Part shown: positions 8,374 to 45,203 of the stretch, one piece after another
How the letters are laid out: the number at the start of each line of letters is the position of its first letter
Position numbering within the stretch: the stretch's first letter is position 1
Assembly (NCBI GenBank): GCA_015065285.1
Contig: SVQP01000002.1
Location: forward strand, 40,209-104,208
Direction: 5' to 3'
DNA length: 64,000 nucleotides
From: Oscillospiraceae bacterium
Lineage (GTDB): Bacteria > Bacillota > Clostridia > Oscillospirales > CAG-272
The notes under the pieces: generated by a model
The model's input: only the letters and a program-made list of their open reading frames with translations
Told to the model about the DNA's origin: nothing
Databases searched by the model: none
Position numbers and translations under genes: made by a program

Positions 8374-9858
8374 ATGGAGTACGTGCTGGAAATGCGGGAT
8401 ATTGTCAAGTCCTTTCCCGGTGTCCGCGCGCTGGACGGAGCGCAGCTGTGTGTCCGCCCGGGCAGCGTGCATGCGCTCATGGGGGAAAACGGGGCAGGCA
8501 AATCCACGTTGATGAAGTGCCTGTTCGGCATTTATCAAAAGGATGGCGGCAGCATTCGTGTCATGGGAAAAGAGGTCAATTTCAAAAATCCTGCAGACGC
8601 CATGAAAAACGGGGTTTCTATGGTGCATCAGGAGCTTAATCAGGCTCTGCGGCGCAGCGTGGCGGATAATATCTGGCTTGGTCGCTATCCCACAAGGCTG
8701 GGGCTTGTACGCGCGAGGTATATGGACAAGAGAACCAGAGAGCTTTTTGAGGATCTTGAGGTGGACGTAGACCCTGCGCGCATCATCGGCACCTTGTCGG
8801 TGGCGCAAAGGCAGATGGTGGAGATTGCCAAGGCGGTCTCATACGATGCCAAGATCCTGGTGCTGGATGAGCCTACCTCGTCCTTGGCGGATCGTGAGGT
8901 GGCGCACTTGTTCCGCATTATCAAAAAGCTGCGCGAGCGTGGCTGCGGCATTATTTATATCTCGCATAAAATGGATGAGATCCTTGCTGTATCGGATGAG
9001 GTCAGCGTCATGCGTGACGGCAAATATATCTCCACCGATGCGGCAAGCACGCTGACCACACAAAAAATCATTGCCAAAATGGTGGGCAGAGATCTCTCGC
9101 AGCTCTATCCCGAGCAAAACAGAGAACGTGGCGAGGCGCTTTTGAAGGTCACGGATCTTTGCGGTCCGGGGCTCGAGAAGGTCTCCTTTACCCTGCATCG
9201 CGGTGAGGTGCTGGGGCTTTGCGGATTGGTGGGCGCGGGGAGAACCGAGATTTTGGAAACGCTGTTTGGCATGCGCAAGTGCACGGGCGGCAGCGTGGAG
9301 CTTGACGGCAAGCAAATGCACGTCAAAAAGCCGTCGGATGCCATTGCATCGGGTCTTGCGCTGCTGACCGAGGAGCGGCGTGCCACCGGCATTTTCGGTG
9401 GGCTTTCACTGACCGATAATGCTTGTATTGCAAGGCTTTCGCGCTATCGCGGTGCGCTTGGGCTTTTGCGCACGGGGCGCATGGGTGCGGATACCGACAA
9501 GATCATATCGGATCTGCGCGTCAAGGCACCGGGCAAACACACAAAGATCAAGCTGCTCTCGGGTGGCAACCAGCAAAAGGTGATTCTCGGCAGGTGGCTT
9601 TTGACACAGCCCGAGGTGCTATTGTTGGATGAGCCCTGCCGCGGTGTGGACGTGGGCGCAAAATCCGAGATCTATGCCCTGATCGCAAAGCTGGCGGATG
9701 CGGGAAAGGGCATTGTCATGGTGTCAAGTGAGATGCCCGAGCTGATCGGTATGTGTGATCGCATACTGGTCATTTCGGGTGGCAGAGTGGCAGGCGAGCT
9801 TGTGCGCGGAGAATACAGCGAGCAGGCTCTGATGGCGCTTGCTGCCAAATACGTGTGA
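8374..9858 (+). CDS. mglA: sugar ABC transporter ATP-binding protein (duplicated ATPase)
   Basis: 494 aa. SFPGVRALDGAQLCVRPGSVHALMGENGAGKSTLMKCLFGIYQKDGG is very close to the MglA N-terminus. A second ABC domain is present. Confidence 0.85.
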   Translation: MEYVLEMRDIVKSFPGVRALDGAQLCVRPGSVHALMGENGAGKSTLMKCLFGIYQKDGGSIRVMGKEVNFKNPADAMKNGVSMVHQELNQALRRSVADNIWLGRYPTRLGLVRARYMDKRTRELFEDLEVDVDPARIIGTLSVAQRQMVEIAKAVSYDAKILVLDEPTSSLADREVAHLFRIIKKLRERGCGIIYISHKMDEILAVSDEVSVMRDGKYISTDAASTLTTQKIIAKMVGRDLSQLYPEQNRERGEALLKVTDLCGPGLEKVSFTLHRGEVLGLCGLVGAGRTEILETLFGMRKCTGGSVELDGKQMHVKKPSDAIASGLALLTEERRATGIFGGLSLTDNACIARLSRYRGALGLLRTGRMGADTDKIISDLRVKAPGKHTKIKLLSGGNQQKVILGRWLLTQPEVLLLDEPCRGVDVGAKSEIYALIAKLADAGKGIVMVSSEMPELIGMCDRILVISGGRVAGELVRGEYSEQALMALAAKYV

Positions 9859-9870
9859 TGGAGAGGGATT

Positions 9871-10959
9871 ATGGAGAGAAAAGAAATAGGCGCCTTGGCA
9901 AGGGCGCGGTCAAGTCTTGGCAATTTCAAGGCGCTGCCCGGCAAGGATAAGGCGCGGGTCATCAAAAACGGTGTGCTGGATCACGCCCTGTATATATTGA
10001 TCGCGGTATTTGTCATCGCGGTATTTGCCTATAATCCAAGCTTTCTGTCAGCGGATTCGGTGGTCAATATTCTCATGCAGTCTGCCTCGCGCCTGATCAT
10101 GGCGCTGGGTGTGGCGGGCATCATTGTGCTCACAGGTACAGATCTGTCCGCAGGACGCTGTCTGGGTCTTTGCGCCTGCATCTGCGCGTCTATTTTGCAG
10201 TCGAATGCGGTGGCAAGCAAAATGTTTCCTGCGCTGTCCTATTCGCCGTGGCTGATTCCGTTGGCACTTTTGCTTGTCATGCTGGTGGGCGGCTTGGTGG
10301 GCGCGTTTAACGGGTTTATGGTATCAAAATTCAAGCTGCACCCGTTTATCGTCACGCTGGGCACACAGCTGATCTTGTATGGCGGTGTGATGTGGTACGT
10401 GTCCTTGGGGCAGAACAACAGCGCACCCATTGCGGGGCTGGATCCAAGCTATACGAGCCTTGTCACGGGCGGCATCAATATAGGTGGCGTACAGCTGCCC
10501 AACTATTTGTGGATCGCGGTGGCTGTGACCGTGATTGTGTGGATCGTGTGGAACAAGACCGTGCTTGGCAAAAACATGTTTGCTGTGGGCACCAATCCCG
10601 AGGCGGCTGCCGTTTCGGGTGTCAGCGTGGCAAAAACCATTATCAGCGTGTTTGTGCTGGCTGGGGTTTTGTACGGTGTGTCCGCGTTTGTCGAGTGCGC
10701 CAGAGTGTCCTCCAACTCCACGGCTACGGGCGTCAATTATGAGCTGGATGCCATTGCCGCGTGCGTTATCGGTGGTGTTTCGTTTATGGGCGGTGTGGGC
10801 AAGATCCGCGGAGTGCTGTTGGGTGTATTTTTGCTGCAGTTGGTCAATGCGGGGCTTGTGTTCCTCAATTTCGAGCCCGCCATCATGACGGTGATCAAGG
10901 GTGCGATCATTCTGATCGCTTGCGCGTTGGATATGCGCAAGCATATTGCCAAAACGTAA
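9871..10959 (+). CDS. mglC: sugar ABC transporter permease
   Basis: 362 aa, polytopic, with the LTGGIDLS-like motif (LTGTDLSAG) of the MglC/RbsC family. Confidence 0.8.
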   Translation: MERKEIGALARARSSLGNFKALPGKDKARVIKNGVLDHALYILIAVFVIAVFAYNPSFLSADSVVNILMQSASRLIMALGVAGIIVLTGTDLSAGRCLGLCACICASILQSNAVASKMFPALSYSPWLIPLALLLVMLVGGLVGAFNGFMVSKFKLHPFIVTLGTQLILYGGVMWYVSLGQNNSAPIAGLDPSYTSLVTGGINIGGVQLPNYLWIAVAVTVIVWIVWNKTVLGKNMFAVGTNPEAAAVSGVSVAKTIISVFVLAGVLYGVSAFVECARVSSNSTATGVNYELDAIAACVIGGVSFMGGVGKIRGVLLGVFLLQLVNAGLVFLNFEPAIMTVIKGAIILIACALDMRKHIAKT

Positions 10960-11004
10960 TCATTCTCCGCATCCTTGGAACGAAAGTTTTTGATTGACCT
11001 TTTT
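10950..11004 (+). repeat. 55-bp direct repeat, copy 1 (mglC stop codon + left arm of terminator)
   Basis: caaaacgtaatcattctccgcatccttggaacgaaagtttttgattgaccttttt recurs 306 bp downstream with one mismatch. Confidence 0.9.
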
Positions 11005-11255
11005 TCAGAAAAGCATGGTGGCGTGTGAATGTTGTCATACTTTCGAGTGTTTCTGACGCCACCCTGATGTTGGGCTTCTGCGAAGTCCAACATCTAAAAC
11101 TCAACCGGCAGCGCCCTCGTCGCGCCCGCAGGCGCGAAATATGCTCGGCGTTTTTGGTTCTTTTTGCGCCCGCAGTGCCAAAAAGAACGGAGAGAAATTT
11201 CTCAACGCAAAAAATCAGGAAGCTACTTACAAAAAGCAGCTTCCTTTTTCGTTTG

Positions 11256-11310
11256 CAAAACGTAATCATTCTCCGCACCCTTGGAACGAAAGTTTTTGAT
11301 TGACCTTTTT
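11256..11310 (+). repeat. 55-bp direct repeat, copy 2
   Basis: Same sequence as 10950-11004 except t->c at 11278. Here it continues into the complete hairpin. Confidence 0.9.
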
Positions 11311-11334
11311 GAAAAAAGGTCAATCAAAAACTTT
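11289..11334. terminator. long AT-rich hairpin, bidirectional terminator between mglC and ddh
   Basis: aaagtttttgattgaccttttt / aaaaaggtcaatcaaaaacttt forms a near-perfect stem of about 21 bp. Confidence 0.75.
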
Positions 11335-11350
11335 TATCCTATAAAGATAG

Positions 11351-12322
11351 TTACAAGAGATGCGCGTACAAATCCTCCGGGCTCTCGGGGGAGAGCAGGA
11401 TGGGAGGAATATCAAAGGCTGTCTTGCAGCCAACCTCGCCCATTTGTCCCAGACGGTATGCCGCTCTTGCGAAGGCGACAAGAATACTGCCCGTAAAATC
11501 GGGATTGGACTCCAGATTCAGCTTGTATTCGATGGTATGCGCAGAGCCCGTTGCTGCCTTGCCCGCATGAATGACCGTGCCGCCGTGCGGCAGACCGCCA
11601 TGCTCGCGGTGCAACTGCTCCAAGGAAACGAAGTGCACCGTGGTTTTATAAGGCGCAAAATAGTCGGGCATGGTGATGATGGCTTGCTCGATTGCTGCCT
11701 GATCCGCGCCCTCCTTGATGGCTACGTAGCAAACGCGCTCGTGCATATCTGCCGCGCCGAGCGCAGGCATTTCGCCATGTTTGACGCGCTCCATTGCCGC
11801 TGAGATCGGCACTGTATACTGTCTTGCATCGGCAACGCCTTCGATGCGGCGAATGGCATCCGAGTGTCCTTGGCTGACGCCCGTCCCCCAAAAGGTGTAG
11901 CTCTTGCCTTCAGGCAACATGCTTTGCGCGTAAAGTCTTGTCAGCGAAAACATACCGGGATCCCAGCCAACCGAAATCACTGCCACCTTGCCGCCCTTAC
12001 GTGCCGCTGCATCTACGCACGCGCGGTGCGTAAGGATCTTTGCATGCGTGTCAAAGCTGTCCACCACGTGGAATTGCTCAGCCAGTGCAGGGGTAGAGTG
12101 AGGAAGATCGGTTGCAGATCCTCCGCAGTTGATCACGACGTCAATCTGCTCCGCCATGCTCTGCAAATCGTTCAGGGAGTAAACGAAAATCCCCGTCGCA
12201 CTCTGCACGCTTGCGGGATCGCGACGTGTGAAAATGCCCACAGCCTCCATATCGGGCGCGGCAGTCAGCGCAGCTTCCACACCGCGACCGAGGTTACCGT
12301 ACCCCACAATTGCTATCTTCAT
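11351..12322 (-). CDS. ddh: meso-diaminopimelate D-dehydrogenase
   Basis: 323 aa. VGYGNLGR, GWDPGMFS, FWGTGVSQGHSDA and NPDFT motifs match the Corynebacterium-type Ddh as I recall it. Confidence 0.9.
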   Translation of the reverse strand: MKIAIVGYGNLGRGVEAALTAAPDMEAVGIFTRRDPASVQSATGIFVYSLNDLQSMAEQIDVVINCGGSATDLPHSTPALAEQFHVVDSFDTHAKILTHRACVDAAARKGGKVAVISVGWDPGMFSLTRLYAQSMLPEGKSYTFWGTGVSQGHSDAIRRIEGVADARQYTVPISAAMERVKHGEMPALGAADMHERVCYVAIKEGADQAAIEQAIITMPDYFAPYKTTVHFVSLEQLHREHGGLPHGGTVIHAGKAATGSAHTIEYKLNLESNPDFTGSILVAFARAAYRLGQMGEVGCKTAFDIPPILLSPESPEDLYAHLL

Positions 12323-13070
12323 AATCCTTCTCCTGATTCAGCTCGTCCAGCATGCTCTGCATGCCGTAAAGCCCGGGGGTCTTGCCCCGAATATAAGCCG
12401 CCGCGGTTAAAGCACCCTCGGCAAATAAAGCACGGGTATGCGCCTTGTGCTCCAGCACAAGGGTCTGGCTGTCGGTGCAAATGCAAACCTTGTGCTCACC
12501 CACCACGTTTCCCATGCGAACGGCAGAAATGCCAATGTCCTGCGGCTCTCGCTTGCCCTGACCGCTGCGACCAAGCACCTTGTGTGCGTCGGGGCGCACC
12601 TCGCAAATGGCATCTGCCAGCATCAGTGCCGTGCCGCTGGGCGCATCCACCTTGTGCTTGTGGTGCACCTCAATAATCTCAATATCCGCGTCGGGGAAGG
12701 CGCGCGCTGCCTGCTTTGCCAGCTGCAAAAGCACCGCAATACCTACCGACATATTGCCCGAATGGAATACGGGCACGTGCGCAGCCGCTGCCTTGACGTG
12801 CTCCAGCTGCTCCTTTGTGTGACCCGTTGTGCCAATGACGCAGGGCGTGCCGGTTGCCACGGCATAGTCCAGCACCGCATCGGTTGCGCTCATGTGCGAA
12901 AAATCCACGATCACGTCCACCGCCTCACCGCACTCGGCAGGGGTGTGGGGGAAGAGATCGGAGCACGCATCCACGCCAACGTAAGCGTCAGCGCCCGCGT
13001 AGCCGTTCTGCGTAAGCGTCATGAGCTCCTTTCCCATGCGACCCGCAGCACCGATGATCATAATTTTCAT
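12294..13070 (-). CDS. dapB: 4-hydroxy-tetrahydrodipicolinate reductase
   Basis: 258 aa. GAAGRMG N-terminus and E(V/A)HHxxKxDAPSGTA motif (EVHHKHKVDAPSGTA). Confidence 0.9.
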   Translation of the reverse strand: MKIMIIGAAGRMGKELMTLTQNGYAGADAYVGVDACSDLFPHTPAECGEAVDVIVDFSHMSATDAVLDYAVATGTPCVIGTTGHTKEQLEHVKAAAAHVPVFHSGNMSVGIAVLLQLAKQAARAFPDADIEIIEVHHKHKVDAPSGTALMLADAICEVRPDAHKVLGRSGQGKREPQDIGISAVRMGNVVGEHKVCICTDSQTLVLEHKAHTRALFAEGALTAAAYIRGKTPGLYGMQSMLDELNQEKDYEDSNCGVR

Positions 13071-14039: not shown

Positions 14040-14248
14040 ATCTTTTTCCGAAAAGCCCGGATCAAATGCTATGCCAAAGAGAAGCACCCCGCGATTTTTC
14101 GCGACAGTCGAACGGCACTTAGTCCGCTCGCCCAACCAAATCCGCCGCACCTGCGGATGGCTTCGGCACCGCGCCCCTTTCGCTCACCAACGGCTGTGCT
14201 GCCTGTTCCGATGAGGTACTGTTTGCGCCGTGCGCCTCGACTCTTATG
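14040..14248 (-). promoter_or_regulatory. lysine riboswitch (L-box) aptamer
   Basis: The minus strand carries the conserved L-box blocks in order: GAGGCGC, AGTA, GGAA, GAAAGGGGCGCGGTGCCGAAG, TTGG, ACTGTCG, closing ...GGGGTGCTTCTCTT. The genes downstream are for lysine biosynthesis. Confidence 0.85.
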
Positions 14249-18797: not shown

Positions 18798-18889
18798 GGC
18801 TACGAAACGTCTGCTTAGCCGGAGTAATATTCTTTACTTGCCCTAACCGATTACGCAGCGGGCGATCAATGATCGCCCCTACAGGCGCG

Positions 18890-18997
18890 TCATAAACCGT
18901 TTCCTAGATCCCGCGCTGCGCGCGCCCTTCGGGTTCGACTGCGCGCGGACACCACAACGCGGTGTCCGCGCTCCGCTCAGGATGACACAAAAGGGGG
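18890..18997 (+). repeat. module X, copy 1 (about 107 bp)
   Basis: It matches 22874-22980 with 3 substitutions and 1 indel (aligned by eye). Confidence 0.85.
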
Positions 18998-19085
18998 AGG
19001 CGAGTCCTCGCGTCTTCGCTCAGAAGCACACCACTATGTGTCATCCTGAGCGGAGAGAGAATGCCGCTGCGCGGCATTCGAACGC

Positions 19086-19199
19086 AGTCGAACTTTTGCG
19101 GGTCGAACATTTCGCGGCAGAGCCGCGAAATTGAGCGAGCAAAAGCGCAAGTGCGGTAGCGCGCAGCGGGATCTGCGAGGGGTTTACAAGACGTCTGCT
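19086..19199 (+). repeat. module Y, copy 1 (114 bp)
   Basis: It matches 22495-22608 with 5 substitutions and no indel (aligned by eye). Confidence 0.85.
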
Positions 19200-19437
19200 C
19201 GACCAAAGTAATATTTTTTACTTGCCCCAACCGCTTGCGTATCGGACCGCCGAGGACGTCGGTCCCTACAAGGGAATCATAAACCGTTTCCTGGATCCTC
19301 AAAGCGCAATCCTTGCGCTTTGACTTTCAAAAATCAGCAATTTTTTGCAGATTTTTGAAAGTTCGACTCGAAAACATCCGCACAGGGATGTTTTCTCGCT
19401 CAGGATGACACAAGGGGGGAAGCTCTGCCATCAGACC

Positions 19438-19466
19438 TTGACCTTTCAAGTGAATTGTGATATAAT
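19438..19466 (+). promoter_or_regulatory. sigma-A type promoter in front of RHS fragment 1
   Basis: TTGACC (19438-43), 17-nt spacer, TATAAT (19461-66), with TG at the extended -10 position. Confidence 0.6.
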
Positions 19467-19493
19467 AACATTGACCCGTTAAGGGGCTTAATC

Positions 19494-19523
19494 ATGCAAC
19501 CCAAACCGGCATCATCGGCATGA
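19494..19523 (+). CDS. 9-codon upstream ORF (MQPKPASSA) overlapping the RHS-fragment start
   Basis: aagggg SD 7-8 nt upstream. The stop TGA 19521-23 overlaps ATG 19520 (ATGA). Confidence 0.3.
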   Translation: MQPKPASSA

Positions 19524-19887
19524 TGTATACCGGCACTAACGGCACGACAGCTACCTACTACTTCCGCCGCAATCTGCTTGGTGACGTCATTGGTATTTAT
19601 GATACCAATGGTGCCAAGGTTGGCGGCTATGCTTATGATGCTTGGGGTAATTGCACGATTACGCTCAATACCAACGGTATTGCAACCAAGAATCCCATCA
19701 GATATCGCGGTTACTATTACGACCAAGATACCGGCTTGTACTATCTCAATGCGCGTTACTATAGCCCCGAATGGAGAAGATTCATCTCGCCTGATGATAC
19801 GGCTTATCTCGATCCCGACAGCTTCAATGGGCTGAATCTGTATTGCTATTGTAATAATGATCCCGTCAACTATGCCGATCCAAGTGG
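19508..19887 (+). repeat. 380-bp RHS core-tail repeat, copy 1
   Basis: Colinear with 20952-21331 at a constant offset of 1444 nt. The first 250 bp or so are near-identical; the last 120 bp or so are more diverged. Confidence 0.9.
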
Positions 19888-20473
19888 GCATATGCCAGAA
19901 TGGGCACAGAGGGTTGTTTGTGGTTTGGCAATATCAGGACTTGTAGTTGCTACTGTCTTGACTTGCGGCGTGGCTGGAGCTGGAGCAGCGATTGTTGGAG
20001 CAGCCATGTTAGCTGGTGGATTGATATCTGGAGGAATCACCGCTATAGACCAGTTGCGTGACACTGGTACGATTGATTTGACTTCGGTTGCTATTTCCAT
20101 ACTTTCCGGAACCGCATATGGATTGGTAATAGGCTTGACTGGAGGCGCTGGCACCTGGGCTATTGCAGGGAAATTGGCTGTTGCTGGAGGCACATCATTA
20201 CTTAATAGCTGGAATGAATGGGATGAGAATTCAAGTTTTGGAGGAATGATGGTCTCGTTAGGGTTTTCTTTAGCTGCGTCTGGAATTGCTCATGGCGCCG
20301 GATACTTGGCAGGTAAATTCGGAGCGCAAATATTGCCCAGAATTCTACCAAGAAATCCGAAGCACATAATAACCATGGGGGATATTGGATCTGCATTATG
20401 GAGTATTCCTGCTGTAAAGGTGGGAAGTATTAGGTTTATTAGTGGGATATTTGGATCTATTATTAGTGACTAA
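19520..20473 (+). CDS. orphan RHS core tail + C-terminal glycine-rich hydrophobic toxin domain (N-terminally truncated)
   Basis: YD-type repeats (YAYDAWGN) and RHS core end RYYSPEWRRFISPDD...LNLYCYCNNDPVNYADPSG. A variable CT of about 194 aa rich in GxxxG/AxxxG follows. Confidence 0.75.
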   Translation: MMYTGTNGTTATYYFRRNLLGDVIGIYDTNGAKVGGYAYDAWGNCTITLNTNGIATKNPIRYRGYYYDQDTGLYYLNARYYSPEWRRFISPDDTAYLDPDSFNGLNLYCYCNNDPVNYADPSGHMPEWAQRVVCGLAISGLVVATVLTCGVAGAGAAIVGAAMLAGGLISGGITAIDQLRDTGTIDLTSVAISILSGTAYGLVIGLTGGAGTWAIAGKLAVAGGTSLLNSWNEWDENSSFGGMMVSLGFSLAASGIAHGAGYLAGKFGAQILPRILPRNPKHIITMGDIGSALWSIPAVKVGSIRFISGIFGSIISD

Positions 20474-20489
20474 GAGGAGGTAAGCCAAT

Positions 20490-20672
20490 TTGGAGTTTCT
20501 TAAATATTGTTTGTATTGTCTTGGTATTGTAATAAGTGGCGCTTTTGGAAATAATCCAGAGGGTATGTCGCTAAAAACAATAATTGTTGGCAGTGTTACG
20601 ATGTTCGTTTTGCTGGGATTGGCATTAGGCATCCTATGGTTAATTGCAATAATAGTGAATAAAATTAGGTGA
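20490..20672 (+). CDS. putative immunity protein 1 (60 aa, two TM helices)
   Basis: TTG start 6 nt after gaggagg, 17 nt after the toxin stop. Two hydrophobic helices. AT-rich. Confidence 0.6.
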   Translation: MEFLKYCLYCLGIVISGAFGNNPEGMSLKTIIVGSVTMFVLLGLALGILWLIAIIVNKIR

Positions 20673-20738
20673 AATATGTGAAAATCATAGGCGCCAAGTG
20701 CCTAGGACACAGGGGGCGGTTAGCGTGAAAGCAAGCTG

Positions 20739-21935
20739 TTGAACTACAACGCATACGGTCAGAGAATAGGTGTTCGGTATACGTTCAGGCTCAGCGCACC
20801 GTCCTCTGCAATTGCCATGGGCACGCTGATGGGATATACCAAAGCATTCTGTTACGACCAATCCGGCAGACTGATCTGTGAGCGCAAGATCGGCAATTAT
20901 TACGGAGAAGGCACTGCGAGCGAGCAAACTGTATTTCTGTATGACGAGAGCGGTATCGTCGGCATGATGTATACCGGCACTAACGGTGAAACAGCTACCT
21001 ACTACTTCCGCCGCAATCTGCTTGGTGACGTCATTGGTATTTATAATACCAATGGTGCCAAGGTTGGTGGCTATGCTTATGATGCTTGGGGTAATTGCAC
21101 GATTACGCTCAATACCAATGGTATTGCAACCAAGAATCCCATCAGATACAGAGGTTATTACTACGACCAAGATACCGGCTTGTACTATCTCAATGCGCGG
21201 TACTACTCCCCCACTTGGCGTAGATTCATCAGCCCCGATGATACGAGCTATCTTGACCCGGAAATCGAAAGCGGACTGAATCTGTATTGCTATTGTAATG
21301 ATGATCCCGTCAACTATGCTGATCCGAGTGGATATATTGCAATTTCAACAATAATAATTGGTTGTTTGGCGGCTTTTGCTGTTGGTTCAGCAATAAGTGC
21401 AGTTTCACAAGGATTTCAATATGGATGGGATGAAATAAGTGTAGGACAGGTTTTGATTGATGGTGCATTTGCCGCAGCATCTGTTGCTTTAGCCGCAACA
21501 GGGATGCCTTTTATTGCTTCTGTTGCTGTAGGCGCGGCAATGGGATTGGGGCAATATGCTATAAGCACTAAGTTTCATAATGAACCCATGACACTTCAAG
21601 GGGTCATTATTTCGACTGTTTTAGGTGGAATCGGTGGTGCTGTCAGTGGAGCAGGAGCTAAAAACCTTAGTACTATTGCGTCTATTTATGATGATATGAC
21701 AGGAAGAGCGGCACAAGGGGTTAAAGCATTGATCACCGCAGCGCAAAGATATGGCTTTGGTAGTAAGCAATTTGCACTTGTAAACAACCTATATGGCAAA
21801 GCTATACAGTCAGCTGTGAACCAAGGAATAAAAAAGGCTTTTGTAGGCGCTACAATTAAGATTACCGCTACTACAATTGCCAATCCGTTTGTCGGTATGG
21901 GGATTAATAGCATAGTTGAATTCCTTATAAATTAA
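20739..21935 (+). CDS. orphan RHS core tail + second C-terminal hydrophobic toxin domain (fragment; may be silent)
   Basis: TTG-initiated ORF with no good SD. YD repeats (FCYDQSGRL, FLYDESG) and core end ...NDDPVNYADPSG. A different CT of about 200 aa follows. Confidence 0.65.
   Translation: MNYNAYGQRIGVRYTFRLSAPSSAIAMGTLMGYTKAFCYDQSGRLICERKIGNYYGEGTASEQTVFLYDESGIVGMMYTGTNGETATYYFRRNLLGDVIGIYNTNGAKVGGYAYDAWGNCTITLNTNGIATKNPIRYRGYYYDQDTGLYYLNARYYSPTWRRFISPDDTSYLDPEIESGLNLYCYCNDDPVNYADPSGYIAISTIIIGCLAAFAVGSAISAVSQGFQYGWDEISVGQVLIDGAFAAASVALAATGMPFIASVAVGAAMGLGQYAISTKFHNEPMTLQGVIISTVLGGIGGAVSGAGAKNLSTIASIYDDMTGRAAQGVKALITAAQRYGFGSKQFALVNNLYGKAIQSAVNQGIKKAFVGATIKITATTIANPFVGMGINSIVEFLIN
20952..21331 (+). 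repeat. 380-bp RHS core-tail repeat, copy 2
   Basis: See 19508-19887. Confidence 0.9.
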
Positions 21936-21951
21936 TCTTAGGAGCGTTGAT

Positions 21952-22329
21952 ATGACTAGATATCTTTTATTGCTGATTGTTACGGTAACTCTTGTGGTCA
22001 CGTGGGTTTTTGCAACTCAAAGTCAAGGGGGCTTGAGATTCGCTGAAAATGAAAAATTGGTTGTGCGATCCAATTCAATTTTGAGGAAACTTTTGTTAAA
22101 AAAGGATAATCAAGATTTTCCATTGAGAATATACAAAGTCATTCCATGGGTTATTAATATGGTTTTGTTTTTCAGTGTATTATTAGCTTATACGGTATAT
22201 GCAATTTTGTATCATAATCCAACGGGACTAATGATAAAAAGCTTTTTAGAAAGTGCTAGTGTGCAGATTTTCAGTTTGGCATGGTGTTTATTGAATTTCC
22301 TTTATATAGGAATCATTAATGCTCTGTAG
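21952..22329 (+). CDS. putative immunity protein 2 (125 aa, polytopic membrane)
   Basis: ATG follows aggag, 17 nt after the toxin stop. 3-4 hydrophobic helices. AT-rich. Confidence 0.6.
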   Translation: MTRYLLLLIVTVTLVVTWVFATQSQGGLRFAENEKLVVRSNSILRKLLLKKDNQDFPLRIYKVIPWVINMVLFFSVLLAYTVYAILYHNPTGLMIKSFLESASVQIFSLAWCLLNFLYIGIINAL

Positions 22330-22413
22330 CCCAGTTTTTTAAATTCTTCACCGTAACAGAAAACGGTTCTCTGTTCCATAAATAATCAAAATCCAAGTAT
22401 GATAACTCTGTTG

Positions 22414-22449
22414 AGAGTGCCGCTTCGGCGGCACTCTTTTTTGATTTTT
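22414..22449 (+). terminator. intrinsic terminator closing the RHS island
   Basis: agagtgccgc-ttcg-gcggcactct followed by ttttttgattttt. Confidence 0.85.
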
Positions 22450-22494
22450 CGTACTCTCTTTTGTGTCATCCTGAGCGAGGTCGCAGAGCGACCG

Positions 22495-22608
22495 AGTCGA
22501 ACTTTTGCGGGTCGAATATTTCGCGGCAGAGCCGCGAAATTGAGCGAGCAAAAGCGCAAGTGCGATAGCGCGCAGCGGGATCTGCGATGGGTTTGCAAGA
22601 TGTCTGCT
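22495..22608 (+). repeat. module Y, copy 2
   Basis: Direct repeat of 19086-19199. Confidence 0.85.
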
Positions 22609-22625
22609 TAGCCGGAGTAACTAAG

Positions 22626-22861
22626 CCTCTCCCGCCGGGTAGAGGGGGACCGCAGTGAGCGTAAGCGAACAGCGGTGGAGTGGGTCACCGTATGGACGCT
22701 CTTTCATCAATTAATCGATCCCACATGATAGGAAAAGAGAACCCTTCGGCAAATGCCGCAGCATTTGCCACCTCCCTTAAAAGGGAGGCAACCCCTCCAC
22801 CGCAATCGCGAAGCGGCACGCTGCGCCGCTTCACTGCGGTCCCCCTCCCCTAAAGGGGAGG
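22626..22861. mobile_element. MITE-like element with imperfect terminal inverted repeats of about 55-65 bp, no ORF
   Basis: The left end cctctcccgccgggtagagggggaccgcagtgagcg...gcggtggag is the imperfect reverse complement of the right end ctccaccgc...cactgcggtccccctcccctaaaggggagg. Confidence 0.5.
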
Positions 22862-22873
22862 CTCTTTCGCGTG

Positions 22874-22980
22874 TCATAAACCGTTTACTAGATCCCGCGC
22901 TGCGCGCGCCCTACGGGTTCGACTGCGCGCGAACACCACAACGCGGTGTCCGCGCTCCGCTCAGGATGACACAAAGGGGG
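22874..22980 (+). repeat. module X, copy 2
   Basis: Direct repeat of 18890-18997. Confidence 0.85.
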
Positions 22981-23245
22981 GGCACCGCCAAAGTAACTTT
23001 GTGTAGGGGAGCATATTATGCTCCCGCACGCGATGATAACGGATCAGCGTTCGGGTAAAAAAATCATAAACCGTTTGCAAGACGGGTCGTCAAGGTGCCG
23101 ACCCCTACCGGGGTTGTTGCCGCAGGCAGGATGACACGAAAGGGGTGTTCTGCTCAGGATGACACAAAGGGGATGCGTGTGTATAGATTTGTTAAATGGT
23201 TTTCATGTAGCTTTCAAGCATGACCGATTTTTCGCACCGGGGTTA

Positions 23246-37793: not shown

Positions 37794-40700
37794 ATGGCAC
37801 ACAATGAATTTGTGCACCTGCATTTGCACAGTGAATACAGTCTGCTGGACGGCGCCTGCCGTATTGCGGATATTCCGGCAAGAGCCGCAGAGTGCGGACA
37901 TCATGCCGTTGCCATTACCGACCATGGCGCCATGTACGGTGTGGTTGAGTTTTATAAGGCTTGCAAAAAAGCCGGGATCAAGCCGATCATCGGCTGCGAG
38001 GTCTACGTAGCGTCCGGCTCGCGCTTTGAAAAGTTCAAGAGTGCCGAGGCATCTGCCAATCACCTTGTGCTTTTGTGCGAAAATCAAAAGGGATATGAAA
38101 ATCTGATCGCCCTTGTTTCCAAGGGCTTTACCGAGGGCTTTTACGGCAAGCCGCGCGTGGATGCAGAGCTGCTCCGCGCCCATCATGAAGGGCTGATTGC
38201 GCTCTCGGCATGCCTTGCAGGCAAAATTCCGCGTCAGCTTTCGGCAGGGGACTTTGCCGCTGCCAAGCAAACGGCACTGGAATATGCCGCACTGTTTGGC
38301 AAGAATAATTTCTTTATCGAGCTGCAAAACCACGGCATGGTGGAGCAAAAGCAGATCCTGCCGCAGCTTTACCGCTTGGCACAGGAATGCGGCATTGGCG
38401 TGGTTGCTACCAACGATTGCCACTATCTGCGCCGCCGCGATGCCGCAACGCAAGCGATTCTGATGTGCATTCAGACCAACTCGTCCATTGAGGATGGCAG
38501 ACCCATCGGCTTTGAAACCGATGAGTTTTATTACAAAGACACCGGCGAGATGCGCATGCTGTTCGGCTCTTACGAGGGCGCTTTGGAAAACACGGTCAAA
38601 ATCGCGGATCGCTGTCATGTCGAGTTTGATTTCAATACGCTGTATCTGCCCAAATTCCCGTGCCCGGACGGCAAGGATTCGGTCACTTATCTGTACGAGC
38701 TTTGCGAAAAGGGATTTTCCGCGCGCATCAATAAAGGGCAAATTTCCTTTGATACGCACAGCGAGCAGACCTACCGCGAGCGCATTGCTTACGAGCTTTC
38801 TGTGATTGAGCAGATGGGCTATGCCGATTATTTTCTGATCGTGCAGGACTACGTCAACTTTGCCAAGAGCCGCGGTATTCCCGTAGGACCGGGCAGAGGC
38901 TCGGGCGCAGGCTCATTGGTCGCGTTTGCACTGGGCATAACCGACGTGGATTCCATCCGCTATGATCTGCTGTTTGAGCGATTCCTCAACCCGGAGCGCG
39001 TCAGCATGCCCGATATTGATATTGACTTTTGTTATAACCGTCGCGACGAGGTCATTGCCTACGTAGCAGAGCGCTACGGACGCGATCACGTCTCGCAGAT
39101 CATCACCTTCGGTACGCTTGCAGCCCGTGCAGCCATTCGCGATTGCGGACGCGCCATGGGCATGCCGTATGCCGACGTAGACGTCATTGCCAAGGCAGTG
39201 CCTGCAGAGCTGAATATCACGCTTGAGCACGCGCTCAAAATGCCCGAGCTCAAGCAGCTTTACAATGCTTCCGAAAAGAACCGCGAGCTGATCGATACCG
39301 CCATGGCGCTTGAGGGCATGCCAAGGAACGTTTCGGTGCATGCCGCAGGCATTGTCATCACCGATAAGCCCGTGAGCAAATACGTGCCGCTGGCACACAG
39401 CAACAGCACCGTGGTCACCCAGTTTGATATGGATACCATTGCGGGACTGGGACTTTTGAAATTTGACTTTTTGGGCTTGCGATATCTGACCATTATAAAC
39501 GACGCGCAAATGCAGATCCGAGAGAGCAATCCCGAATTTGATATTGAGCGCATTCCGTATGACGATCCCGATACCTTTGCCCTGATCGCTAAGGGAAATA
39601 CCTCGGGTATATTCCAGCTGGAATCCGCAGGCATCAAGCAGGTGCTGATGCAGCTGCGCCCCAGCTGCTTTGAGGACGTGATCGCAGTCATCGCGCTGTA
39701 CCGTCCCGGACCCATGGATTCGATTCCGCGCTATATCGAGTGCAGACACGACCCCTCCAAGATCGTGTATGACACGCCGCTGCTCGAGCCGATCCTCAAG
39801 CAGACCTACGGTTGTGCGGTGTATCAGGAGCAGGTCATGCAGATCTTCCGCGAGGTGGCAGGGTATAGCTTCGGACACGCGGATATTGTGCGCCGCGCCA
39901 TGTCCAAGAAAAAGGCGGACGTGCTGGAATCCGAACGCGAGAGCTTTATTTCGGGAGCCGCACAGCGCGGTGTGGATGCTCAAACTGCAACGAAGCTGTT
40001 TGACGACCTTGCAAATTTTGCAAACTATGCGTTCAATAAATCTCACGCGGCAGCCTATGCGGTGCTGTCCTATCGCACCGCATATCTCAAGGCGCATTAC
40101 CCGTGTGAGTATTTCTCGGCACTCTTGACCAGTGTGCTCGGAAACCAGACAAAAATTGCGGAGTACATCGGGGAGTGCAATAAGCGCGGCATCTCGGTGC
40201 TGCCCCCCGATATCAACCATAGCCGTGCCGATTTTTACGGCAAGGATCACACGATCCGATTCGGACTTCTGGCGCTCAAGAACGTGGGCGGTCAGTTTGT
40301 GGAATCACTCTGCCGCGAGCGTGCAGGCAAGGATTTTGCCTCTTTTGAGGACTTTGTCGAGAGAATGTCGGGAAAAGACATGAATAAGCGCATGATCGAA
40401 GCCTTGATAAAGGCAGGCGCGTTTGATTCGCTTGGCACCTATCGCTCCAAGCTGCTCTCGGCTTACGAGCAGATCATTGATACCGTTTCGCAGAAAAACC
40501 GCGACAATATCGCAGGTCAGCTGGATATGTTCAGCATGGTGCCGGAGGTCAAAGCCAAGACATCGTTTGCGTATCCCAATATTCCCGAGTATTCAAAAAG
40601 GGAAAAGCTGATGCTGGAAAAGGATGCCTCCGGCATGTATTTTTCAGGGCATTTGCTGGATGGATATGACAAGTGCATATCCGAGCTTGGCGGTGTGAAT

Positions 40701-44809: not shown

Positions 44810-45203
44810 AAAAAGGCTGAGTCAAGCAATGGGTGATGTCCTTATCGGAGAAATTTTATAAGGGGTATGGGCATAGCCCTGCGCATTTGTTAAACAAATG
44901 CGAAACTGGCAATAAAAGCAGAAGAGAGAGTAACGCGGTTACAAATTTCCGCGAAGCTCTCTCTTTTTCTGCTTTTTTAGTGATATTCTTTGCTTTCGCA
45001 AAGAGTGATATTATTGCTACCGCAATAGTGATATTGAAGCCTTGCGGCTTCAGTGGTATTTTATTCGCCTTCCAAAACTTGCGTAGCAAATATCACTCGG
45101 CATAAGCCGAATATCACTGCGTAGCAATATCACTCGCCGAGAGGCGAATAAAACTGGCGTGATACTCCGCTTGGAGTATTACGCCAATTTGACTCAGCCT
45201 TTT
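44810..45203. repeat. terminator stem split by a 363-bp hairpin-rich insert
   Basis: aaaaaggctgagtcaa (44810-25) and ttgactcagcctttt (45189-203) are perfect complements separated by 363 bp of nested repeats. Confidence 0.7.
44979..45155. repeat. imperfect palindrome built from 4 forward AGTGATATT and 4 reverse AATATCACT 9-mers alternating with mini-hairpins
   Basis: Forward copies at 44979, 45004, 45027 and 45052 (the last degenerate). Reverse copies at 45089, 45110, 45126 and 45147 (the last degenerate). Confidence 0.8.

Follow-up and report, generated by a model that had tools for sequence, protein, structure and literature searches.

An AT-rich island of two orphan rhs toxin fragments with putative membrane immunity genes in a gut Clostridia genome

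Introduction

What is the role of two rhs gene ends, each joined to a toxin-like tail and followed by a small membrane-protein gene, in a chromosomal region without a full-length rhs gene? The question arises from contig SVQP01000002.1 of an Oscillospiraceae bacterium (assembly GCA_015065285.1), of which we analysed one stretch of 64,000 nucleotides (positions 40,209 to 104,208 of the forward strand), here called the window and numbered from its first letter. A sequence-only reading of the window had described two tandem orphan rhs modules between 19508 and 22329, in each of which the end of an RHS core leads into a C-terminal (CT) domain and is followed, 17 nt downstream, by an open reading frame (ORF) for a membrane protein of 60 or 125 aa with a Shine-Dalgarno (SD) sequence. 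It had further claimed that the cores end in DPSG and then diverge completely, that the CTs are dominated by small-residue hydrophobic runs and belong to families that could not be placed, that the region is richer in AT than its flanks and that the window holds no full-length rhs gene. These claims are borne out by the analyses below, with small corrections to the coordinates. Together, our results favour, with a probability of about 0.65, a horizontally acquired, AT-rich island of orphan rhs-CT and immunity genes that spans about 3 kb (~19418-22447) of the genome of a spore-forming gut member of the Clostridia.

Results

Two 5'-truncated rhs ends

Four co-oriented ORFs fill the region from 19.4 to 22.5 kb in the order fragment 1, imm1, fragment 2 and imm2 (Table 1). 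The first and the third match TIGR03696 (Rhs_assc_core; cut-off 32.5 bits) over its whole length, with 82.7 bits (E 2e-23) for fragment 1 and 78.9 bits (E 3e-22) for fragment 2, and both cores finish with ...YCYCN(N/D)DPVNYADPSG, which contains the core-end motif PxxxxDPxG. The frame of fragment 1 is open from 19475, has its first start codon at 19520 (ATG), carries the core up to 19885 and closes with a stop codon that ends at 20473; a start at 19520 would give a product of 317 aa. Its homology to fragment 2 begins at ~19505-19508, and position 19508, from which the first module had been counted, thus marks the edge of this homology but is not a start codon. Fragment 2 (ORF2, 398 aa) is open from 20724, with a first start codon at 20739 (TTG), the core reaching 21326 and the stop codon ending at 21935.

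Stop codons shut both frames on their 5' sides, at 19472-19474 for fragment 1 and at 20721-20723 (TAG) for fragment 2. When five full-length RHS proteins were searched against the window with tblastn, only the two fragments were matched and no further RHS sequence was found in the 64 kb. The array has no main rhs gene as a neighbour over the 19 kb upstream of it and the 41 kb downstream. Given the upstream stops and the lack of further RHS sequence in the 64 kb, both ORFs are 5'-truncated 3' ends of rhs genes, that is, fragments rather than RHS proteins. Only ~125-200 codons of core remain in each of them, and the YD-repeat shell and the N-terminal secretion domain are gone.

The core tails of the fragments are 90% identical over 300 nt (19507-19806 versus 20951-21250), and this identity ends abruptly after the DPSG codons. 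As direct repeats 1444 nt apart with long perfect runs, they could recombine with loss of CT1 and imm1; none of the contigs that were read shows this deletion.

Two unrelated hydrophobic CT domains

Two CTs of about 194 and 200 aa had been proposed, and two CTs are indeed present; their bounds are now set to 19886-20470 for CT1 (195 aa) and 21327-21932 for CT2 (202 aa). Alignment of the two family alignments with hhalign pairs only the common core tail, and because this profile-profile comparison covers the core tail alone, CT1 and CT2 are regarded as unrelated. They have a similar composition: ~12-13% of the residues are charged, Gly, Ala and Ser are very frequent, [GAS]xxx[GAS] runs are numerous, and each domain has 2-3 hydrophobic segments that pass the Kyte-Doolittle threshold for transmembrane (TM) helices. 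Overlapping triple (G/A/S)xxx(G/A/S) motifs, the pattern of a glycine zipper, number 20 in ORF1 and 21 in ORF2, mostly within the CTs. Five glycines (G28, G31, G38, G44 and G45) are invariant in the CT1 family.

Neither the CTs nor the small ORFs matched a Pfam or NCBIfam family, whether searched alone or member by member, and the CTs did not match the Pfam glycine-zipper model. Searches of PDB sequences with the CT1 and CT2 profiles returned two chance-level matches each (E >= 0.38), none of which was Tse5, so that no enzymatic family for CT1 or CT2 emerged from Pfam, NCBIfam or PDB sequence searches. Weak matches of CTs and small ORFs to SseC, VID and IncD were compositional and were dismissed. 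AlphaFold2, run with the family alignments, predicted both CTs as all-helical with low confidence (predicted local distance difference test, pLDDT, 53-54). The sequence-only reading had proposed a Foldseek check of the CTs; against the PDB it gave no match at E <= 0.001 for either of them, which carries no information on the fold because the models are poor.

Small membrane-protein genes follow the CT domains

Both small ORFs begin 17 nt past the preceding stop codon. The first is preceded by GAGGAGG (20474-20480) and starts with TTG, the second by AGGAG (21940-21944) and starts with ATG. About two TM-like segments, arranged as a hairpin, are predicted for imm1 and about three for imm2.

The same order recurs with homologous sequences. 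CT1 homologues on contigs L085 and L086 are followed by ORFs of 61-62 aa that are 75-85% identical to imm1, and a full-length RHS protein, P0078 on contig L095, is followed by a homologue of ~62 aa with 51% identity. Behind P0051, an orphan with a CT2 domain of 89% identity that is widespread and occurs in 204 blocks of the contig collection, lies a 125-aa homologue of imm2 (86% identity) with the same 17-nt spacing. More distant CT2-like domains are followed by multi-TM ORFs of 135-137 aa: on L024, an RHS ORF that is cut by the contig start has a CT2-like end and then a 136-aa ORF with 28% identity to imm2, and on L032 the downstream ORF has 135 aa. BLASTP of imm2 against this L032 ORF gave no alignment. 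On L099, the ORF downstream of the CT2-like domain was called by a crude scan only, and an automated survey of the ORFs downstream of 189 CTs relied on naive ORF calling that was too crude to be used.

Toxin and partner identities fall together, with CT1/imm1 pairs at 65/85, 70/75 and 53/51% and CT2/imm2 pairs at 89/86 and 37/28%. Adjacent downstream position, conserved synteny and parallel divergence, as seen on L085, L086 and L095 for the first pair and on L089, L024 and L032 for the second, are the marks of toxin/immunity pairs, and the small membrane ORFs are probably, judged by these gene neighbourhoods, the cognate immunity proteins of CT1 and CT2. A dN/dS ratio (nonsynonymous to synonymous substitution rate) of 0.10-0.33 over all four ORF types, with 0.10-0.17 for fragment 1, indicates purifying selection.

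Full-length carriers and other orphan cassettes

In metagenome-assembled genomes of Christensenellaceae, Oscillospiraceae and 'Eubacteriales', core tails of the same kind end RHS proteins of 1400-2300 aa. The full-length rhs genes of related Clostridia are typically followed by 1-9 5'-truncated fragments, each with a different tail, in the classical layout of a main rhs gene plus orphans. With a CT1-only profile, an exhaustive hidden Markov model (HMM) search detected the family as the C-terminal end of P0078 (2190 aa, E 2e-77), P0107, P0115, P0131 and P0160, and RHS repeats are present in all CT1 carriers scanned. P0078 combines a Sec-type signal peptide, RHS repeats and a terminal CT that is 53% identical to CT1. 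Full-length RHS proteins on L032 (1471 aa) and L099 (1570 aa) terminate in CT2-like domains, at 35-37% identity. Both CT families are thus found at the C-terminus of intact RHS proteins, and because the CT families and their partner ORFs end full-length RHS loci elsewhere, the prediction of the orphan model holds. An earlier idea, that the two families exist only as orphans, had been based on homologues that were at first all <=347 aa long; it was dropped when the exhaustive HMM search revealed the full-length carriers. The three word-index searches had returned nothing beyond ~1.75x the query length and had missed even the exact 398-aa ORF2, and absent long homologues in such searches are not evidence.

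Among genomes and metagenomes, scans with the core tail gave top matches of 74-75% identity, and L099 reached 84% over the last 130 residues. The scanned GTDB genomes and metagenomes do not include the locus of the source species, and the best core-tail relatives in them are 72-84% identical.

Lone cassettes without a nearby rhs gene occur in other genomes as well (L085, L086 and L089-L094). On L085 (5075-10072), an orphan-only islet with homologues of CT1 and imm1 lies between rpsF-ssb-rpsR and spoVS, together with five ORFs of 318, 130, 132, 241 and 155 aa without a Pfam match. On L089-L094 (~9800-12431), a CT2/imm2 cassette (P0051 and the 125-aa ORF) is located within a gene for a Na+/Ca2+ exchanger: the upstream piece covers positions 3-70 of the Na_Ca_ex profile and runs into the RHS fragment, and a remainder of 193 aa with Na_Ca_ex similarity comes after the cassette. 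From this arrangement, the cassette appears to have inserted into the exchanger gene and split it.

Distribution among strains and edges of the island

At least 18 contigs, assembled independently from several JGI and ENA samples, encode the exact protein of fragment 1 (P0001), with the four ORFs in the same order. A transketolase gene is the left neighbour in the long contigs, and several contigs are base-for-base identical to the window. On L178, an identical transketolase protein is encoded without the island; this contig matches the window with 99.6% identity as far as 19417, beyond which the two sequences part. This places the left edge at 19417/19418 and makes the ~90 nt that precede fragment 1, non-RHS DNA with a promoter-like site and in-frame stops, part of the island itself. 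Some strains carry the island and others do not. Its GC content of 0.42-0.45 (20-22 kb) compares with ~0.54 around it, and this low GC content together with the allele without the island points to acquired DNA.

To the right of the identical transketolase gene, the island is followed by adh_short (window and L002) or SpoIVA (L001 and L005), and contigs without the island continue with an ABC transporter (L178) or GH106 (L177). The island lies between two nests of short repeats, at 18877-19423 and 22445-23173. Repeat D2 (19086-19211 and 22495-22620, 92% identity) and repeat D3 (18885-18997 and 22869-22981, 96%) occur in both nests, together with palindromic units, and the 64 kb contain six copies of CTCAGGATGACACAA, every one of them within the two nests (expected 0.12). 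An Rfam scan of the whole window assigned the flanking repeats to no RNA family. Gene callers place a spurious ORF of 132 aa on the repeats (18904-19302, minus strand). The strain break points fall within the repeats, and L001 has a copy of the repeat 19281-19423 also to the right of the island, which together suggest rearrangement through the repeats or, alternatively, that the island was gained and lost.

Transcription and translation signals

The best promoter-like site between 18700 and 23400 is TTGACC-17 nt-TATAAT with a TG-extended -10 element (19438-19466), which agrees with the consensus at 11 of 12 positions. The terminator behind imm2 consists of an 11-bp GC-rich stem and a T-run, with a folding energy of -21.9 kcal/mol (z = -6.2 against shuffled sequences). 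With this promoter-like site in front and the strong terminator after imm2, the four ORFs resemble a single transcription unit. A leader ORF close behind the promoter-like site has AAGGGG 7 nt before its ATG, and its stop codon, TGA, shares bases with the ATG of fragment 1 (ATGA); this overlap could possibly couple translation of fragment 1 to the leader. SD sequences stand before imm1 and imm2 and none before the toxin fragments: the ATG of fragment 1 lacks an SD sequence of its own, and fragment 2 has neither SD sequence nor ATG at its 5' end.

Table 1 Features of the island and its surroundings, in window coordinates.
Feature	Position	Strand	Evidence
Left nest of short intergenic repeats (D2-D6, CTCAGGATGACACAA motifs)	18877..19417		Sequence comparison
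Left edge of island-specific DNA with sigma-70-like promoter	19418..19474	+	Divergence from L178; promoter match 11/12
Orphan rhs fragment 1 (core tail and CT1)	19475..20473	+	TIGR03696; exact P0001; CT1 on P0078; hydropathy; dN/dS
Leader ORF, 9 codons (MQPKPASSA), putative function	19494..19523	+	Direct sequence reading
imm1, 60 aa, two-TM hairpin, putative immunity to CT1	20490..20672	+	Homologues after CT1 in L085, L086 and L095; TM segments
Orphan rhs fragment 2 (longer core and CT2)	20724..21935	+	TIGR03696; CT2-like domains on L032 and L099; P0051
imm2, 125 aa, ~3 TM segments, putative immunity to CT2	21952..22329	+	86% homologue after P0051; multi-TM ORFs in L024 and L032
Intrinsic terminator closing the four-gene unit	22413..22447	+	Stem and T-run; folding energy
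Right nest with the same repeats; strain break points at ~22620 and ~22896	22445..23173		Sequence comparison

Discussion

Proposed function of the island

We propose that the island would chiefly provide immunity against membrane-acting RHS toxins. It would be transcribed from its own promoter, and the SD-led imm1 and imm2 would be translated and inserted into the membrane, where they could neutralise incoming toxins of the CT1 and CT2 type that are delivered by the RHS proteins of nearby bacteria. Translation of the toxin fragments would be poor or absent, with fragment 2 probably silent given its missing SD sequence and ATG, and the fragments might be moved onto full-length rhs genes by recombination through the common core tail. 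The toxins themselves are envisaged as helical, glycine-zipper-rich proteins that would insert into the membrane and dissipate its potential in the manner of Tse5-CT and the ionophore toxins of contact-dependent growth inhibition (CDI), until they are blocked within the membrane by a partner with two (imm1) or three (imm2) TM segments. Such pore formation or depolarisation by CT1 and CT2, which the sequence-only reading had inferred, is suggested by their composition and by the membrane-embedded partners and is plausible by analogy. A toxin that acts within the bilayer fits the finding that both putative immunity proteins are small integral membrane proteins, and a bilayer-inserting, depolarising toxin fits best with the combination of no family match, a predicted all-helical structure and small intramembrane partners.

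Four points weigh against this reading. The parent rhs gene of the source genome is not among the matches of the GTDB and metagenome scans, in which the source species is not represented and the best core tails are 72-84% identical. With the near-consensus promoter and the possibly ATGA-coupled leader, fragment 1 may not be silent. The AlphaFold2 models, at a pLDDT of 53-54 and with no Foldseek match at E <= 0.001, are too poor to bear on pore formation, which is plausible by analogy. Finally, the N-terminal module of CT1 may be a device for membrane entry or anchoring and not the toxic principle.

Alternative readings

The last of these points leads to a different division of labour, in which both CTs would be bipartite: the N-terminal glycine-zipper part would be a shared module for membrane entry or anchoring, and the C-terminal part would be toxic without forming pores. 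The activity would then reside in residues ~60-195 of CT1 and ~110-202 of CT2 (amphipathic helical) and could, for example, interfere with a membrane-bound process. We consider this unlikely on balance. The N-terminal ~60 aa of CT1 begin with HMPEWAQ..., followed by a TM helix and then the GVAGAGAAIVGAAMLAGGLISGG zipper that the sequence-only reading had quoted, and this module is also present on RHS tails that continue differently, as the profile matches only positions 1-60 in P0133, P0135-P0137 and P0141, in which the sequence beyond, on reading, looks soluble. In P0216, a similar start (PEWWQW, TM helix and glycine zipper) is joined to a sub-threshold match to DUF6883 (26.5 bits; cut-off 27). 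When 206 CTs of the fetched loci were crudely clustered, the N-terminal cluster of CT1 (42 members) joined 13 tail clusters and that of CT2 (9 members) five, counts that may be inflated by the low-complexity, Gly/Ala-rich composition of these sequences. In an earlier pass over 189 CTs, a subset of the 206, ~44% had a strongly hydrophobic start. The combination of TM helix and glycine zipper therefore resembles a module shared at the N-terminal end of CT regions, and because the CT1 module occurs with other tails, some of them soluble, part of the CT hydrophobicity may serve delivery and not killing. Precedents are the T6SS (type VI secretion system) effector Tde1, in which a glycine zipper is required for translocation (PMC10240207), and the CdiA-CTs with separate entry and toxin domains (PMC11630599). 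However, the remainder of CT1 beyond the module is likewise hydrophobic and Gly-rich, which leaves ~40 residues for another function, and the two small integral membrane proteins fit an action of the toxins in the bilayer. In CT2, the last ~90 residues form an amphipathic helical region. Many RHS tails of the clade (also P0190, and on L023) show a TM helix and a Gly/Ala-rich helix, for instance G-H-M-P-x-W-A-K-W-V-I-G-G, before varied tails.

A combined reading is similarly doubtful. It holds that RHS toxins of gut Clostridia share a few N-terminal TM and glycine-zipper modules (such as PxWxxW-TM-GxxxG in CT1) that would generally insert or translocate diverse payloads across the membrane of the target after release from the shell, and at the same time that lone promoter-bearing cassettes would spread and persist as selfish islets, either toxin-immunity or immunity only, without a parent rhs gene, inserting at repeat nests or even inside genes.

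It may also be speculated that the island is a selfish module resembling a toxin-antitoxin system, in which its own promoter would drive fragment 1 (from the ATG at 19520, perhaps coupled to the leader) and imm1, for addiction or growth modulation without RHS delivery. The near-consensus promoter within island-specific DNA and the SD-led leader that overlaps the ATG of fragment 1 would suit such a module, as would the recurrence of lone cassettes without a nearby rhs gene (L085, L086 and L089-L094) and the purifying selection on orphan CT coding sequences. Yet this selection may stem from the time the sequences spent on full-length genes, fragment 2 has no SD sequence or ATG, and the orphan homologues differ in their 5' truncation points and share no conserved N-terminus. 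We regard this explanation as quite improbable.

That the locus is an assembly artefact, in which an intact rhs gene was broken and left its 3' end, or a set of chance ORFs is effectively refuted: the repeat nests that bound the island are possible break sites of metagenome assemblies, but the four-ORF structure is joined to the transketolase gene in long contigs, several of them mismatch-free, among the at least 18 independent island contigs, an allele without the island exists (L178), in-frame stops and ~90 nt of non-RHS, promoter-bearing sequence precede fragment 1, fragment 2 starts right after imm1 as in the orphan arrays of related genomes, the HMM E-values are ~1e-22, and the four ORFs are conserved in synteny elsewhere with a dN/dS of 0.10-0.33. 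The misassembly that the sequence-only reading had named as a possible refutation is thereby excluded.

Comparison with known systems

Orphan arrays have reportedly been described in E. coli, Dickeya and Serratia, in work attributed to Poole (2011) and Koskiniemi (2014). The orphan rhs-CT/rhsI modules of enterobacteria (PMC10539506), exemplified by the main and orphan rhs of Salmonella Typhimurium (PMC7043789), resemble the island in their 5'-truncated rhs ends with a core tail up to DPxG, the polymorphic CT, the immediately following immunity gene, the tandem layout and the core tail as a recombination handle. The island differs from them in its location in Clostridia of the Gram-positive type, its own promoter-like site, the lack of an adjacent main rhs gene and its different CT and immunity families; furthermore, the related full-length P0078 has a Sec signal peptide instead of a PAAR or T6SS domain.

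WapA of Bacillus subtilis is a Sec-dependent protein with YD/RHS repeats, a polymorphic CT and a downstream immunity gene; its known CTs are tRNases that are paired with cytosolic immunity proteins. P0078 shares the architecture of WapA, whereas CT1 and CT2 are hydrophobic and accompanied by membrane immunity proteins. Glycine-zipper toxins that depolarise membranes are also exported through type VII secretion (T7SS) in Bacillota, with TspA and TelE as examples. EsxX (PMC12744356) belongs to this group and is comparable in its Gram-positive background, its C-terminal glycine-zipper toxin and its membrane immunity proteins; such toxins differ in their N-terminal LXG carrier and T7SS delivery in place of RHS, and no homology was detected with Pfam models.

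Tse5 (RhsP1) of Pseudomonas aeruginosa is an Rhs protein whose CT was shown experimentally to depolarise cells, and two TM regions are predicted for Tsi5, its immunity protein (PMC9637101); a structure of Tse5 is available (PMC10684867). Like CT1 and CT2, Tse5-CT is borne by an Rhs protein, has no predicted enzymatic function and contains predicted TM and amphipathic helices. Tsi5 resembles imm1 as a small protein with two predicted TM regions, and membrane insertion with depolarisation may, by analogy, be common to both systems. Tse5 is, in contrast, delivered by a T6SS, and the PDB profile searches revealed no sequence similarity of CT1 or CT2 to it. CDI ionophore toxins of the CdiA-CT(EC93) type dissipate the membrane potential and have highly polymorphic cognate CdiI proteins (PMC11630599). 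They share with the CTs of the island the nature of polymorphic C-terminal toxins predicted as membrane-spanning helix bundles, and the modularity of entry and effector parts. Their carrier, however, is CdiA, and their order is an entry domain followed by the ionophore, whereas the common module in the island's CTs is N-terminal and itself hydrophobic; no homology was found. By the sequence tests that were run, CT1 and CT2 are outside the Tse5-CT, CDI-ionophore and Pfam glycine-zipper families.

Arrays of orphan rhs-CT and immunity genes are an established concept, as are polymorphic toxins that act on membranes and are paired with membrane immunity proteins. The present finding is an extension of both and adds two CT/immunity families, as yet uncharacterised, with a wide occurrence in gut metagenomes. 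To our knowledge, hardly any work has dealt with the RHS toxins of Gram-positive gut anaerobes. If the CTs depolarise membranes, the Tse5 type of Rhs pore-former would extend to Sec-dependent RHS proteins of Clostridia. The solitary, self-promoted cassettes bear on the spread of immunity genes in the gut.

Other features of the window

The largest ORFs of the 64 kb encode DnaE, SecA, a class A penicillin-binding protein and PcrA. A lysine riboswitch (72.8 bits) was detected at 14074-14248 on the minus strand, upstream of dapA-dapB-DAPDH genes, and a Gut-1 RNA (57.3 bits) at 45085-45156, also on the minus strand.

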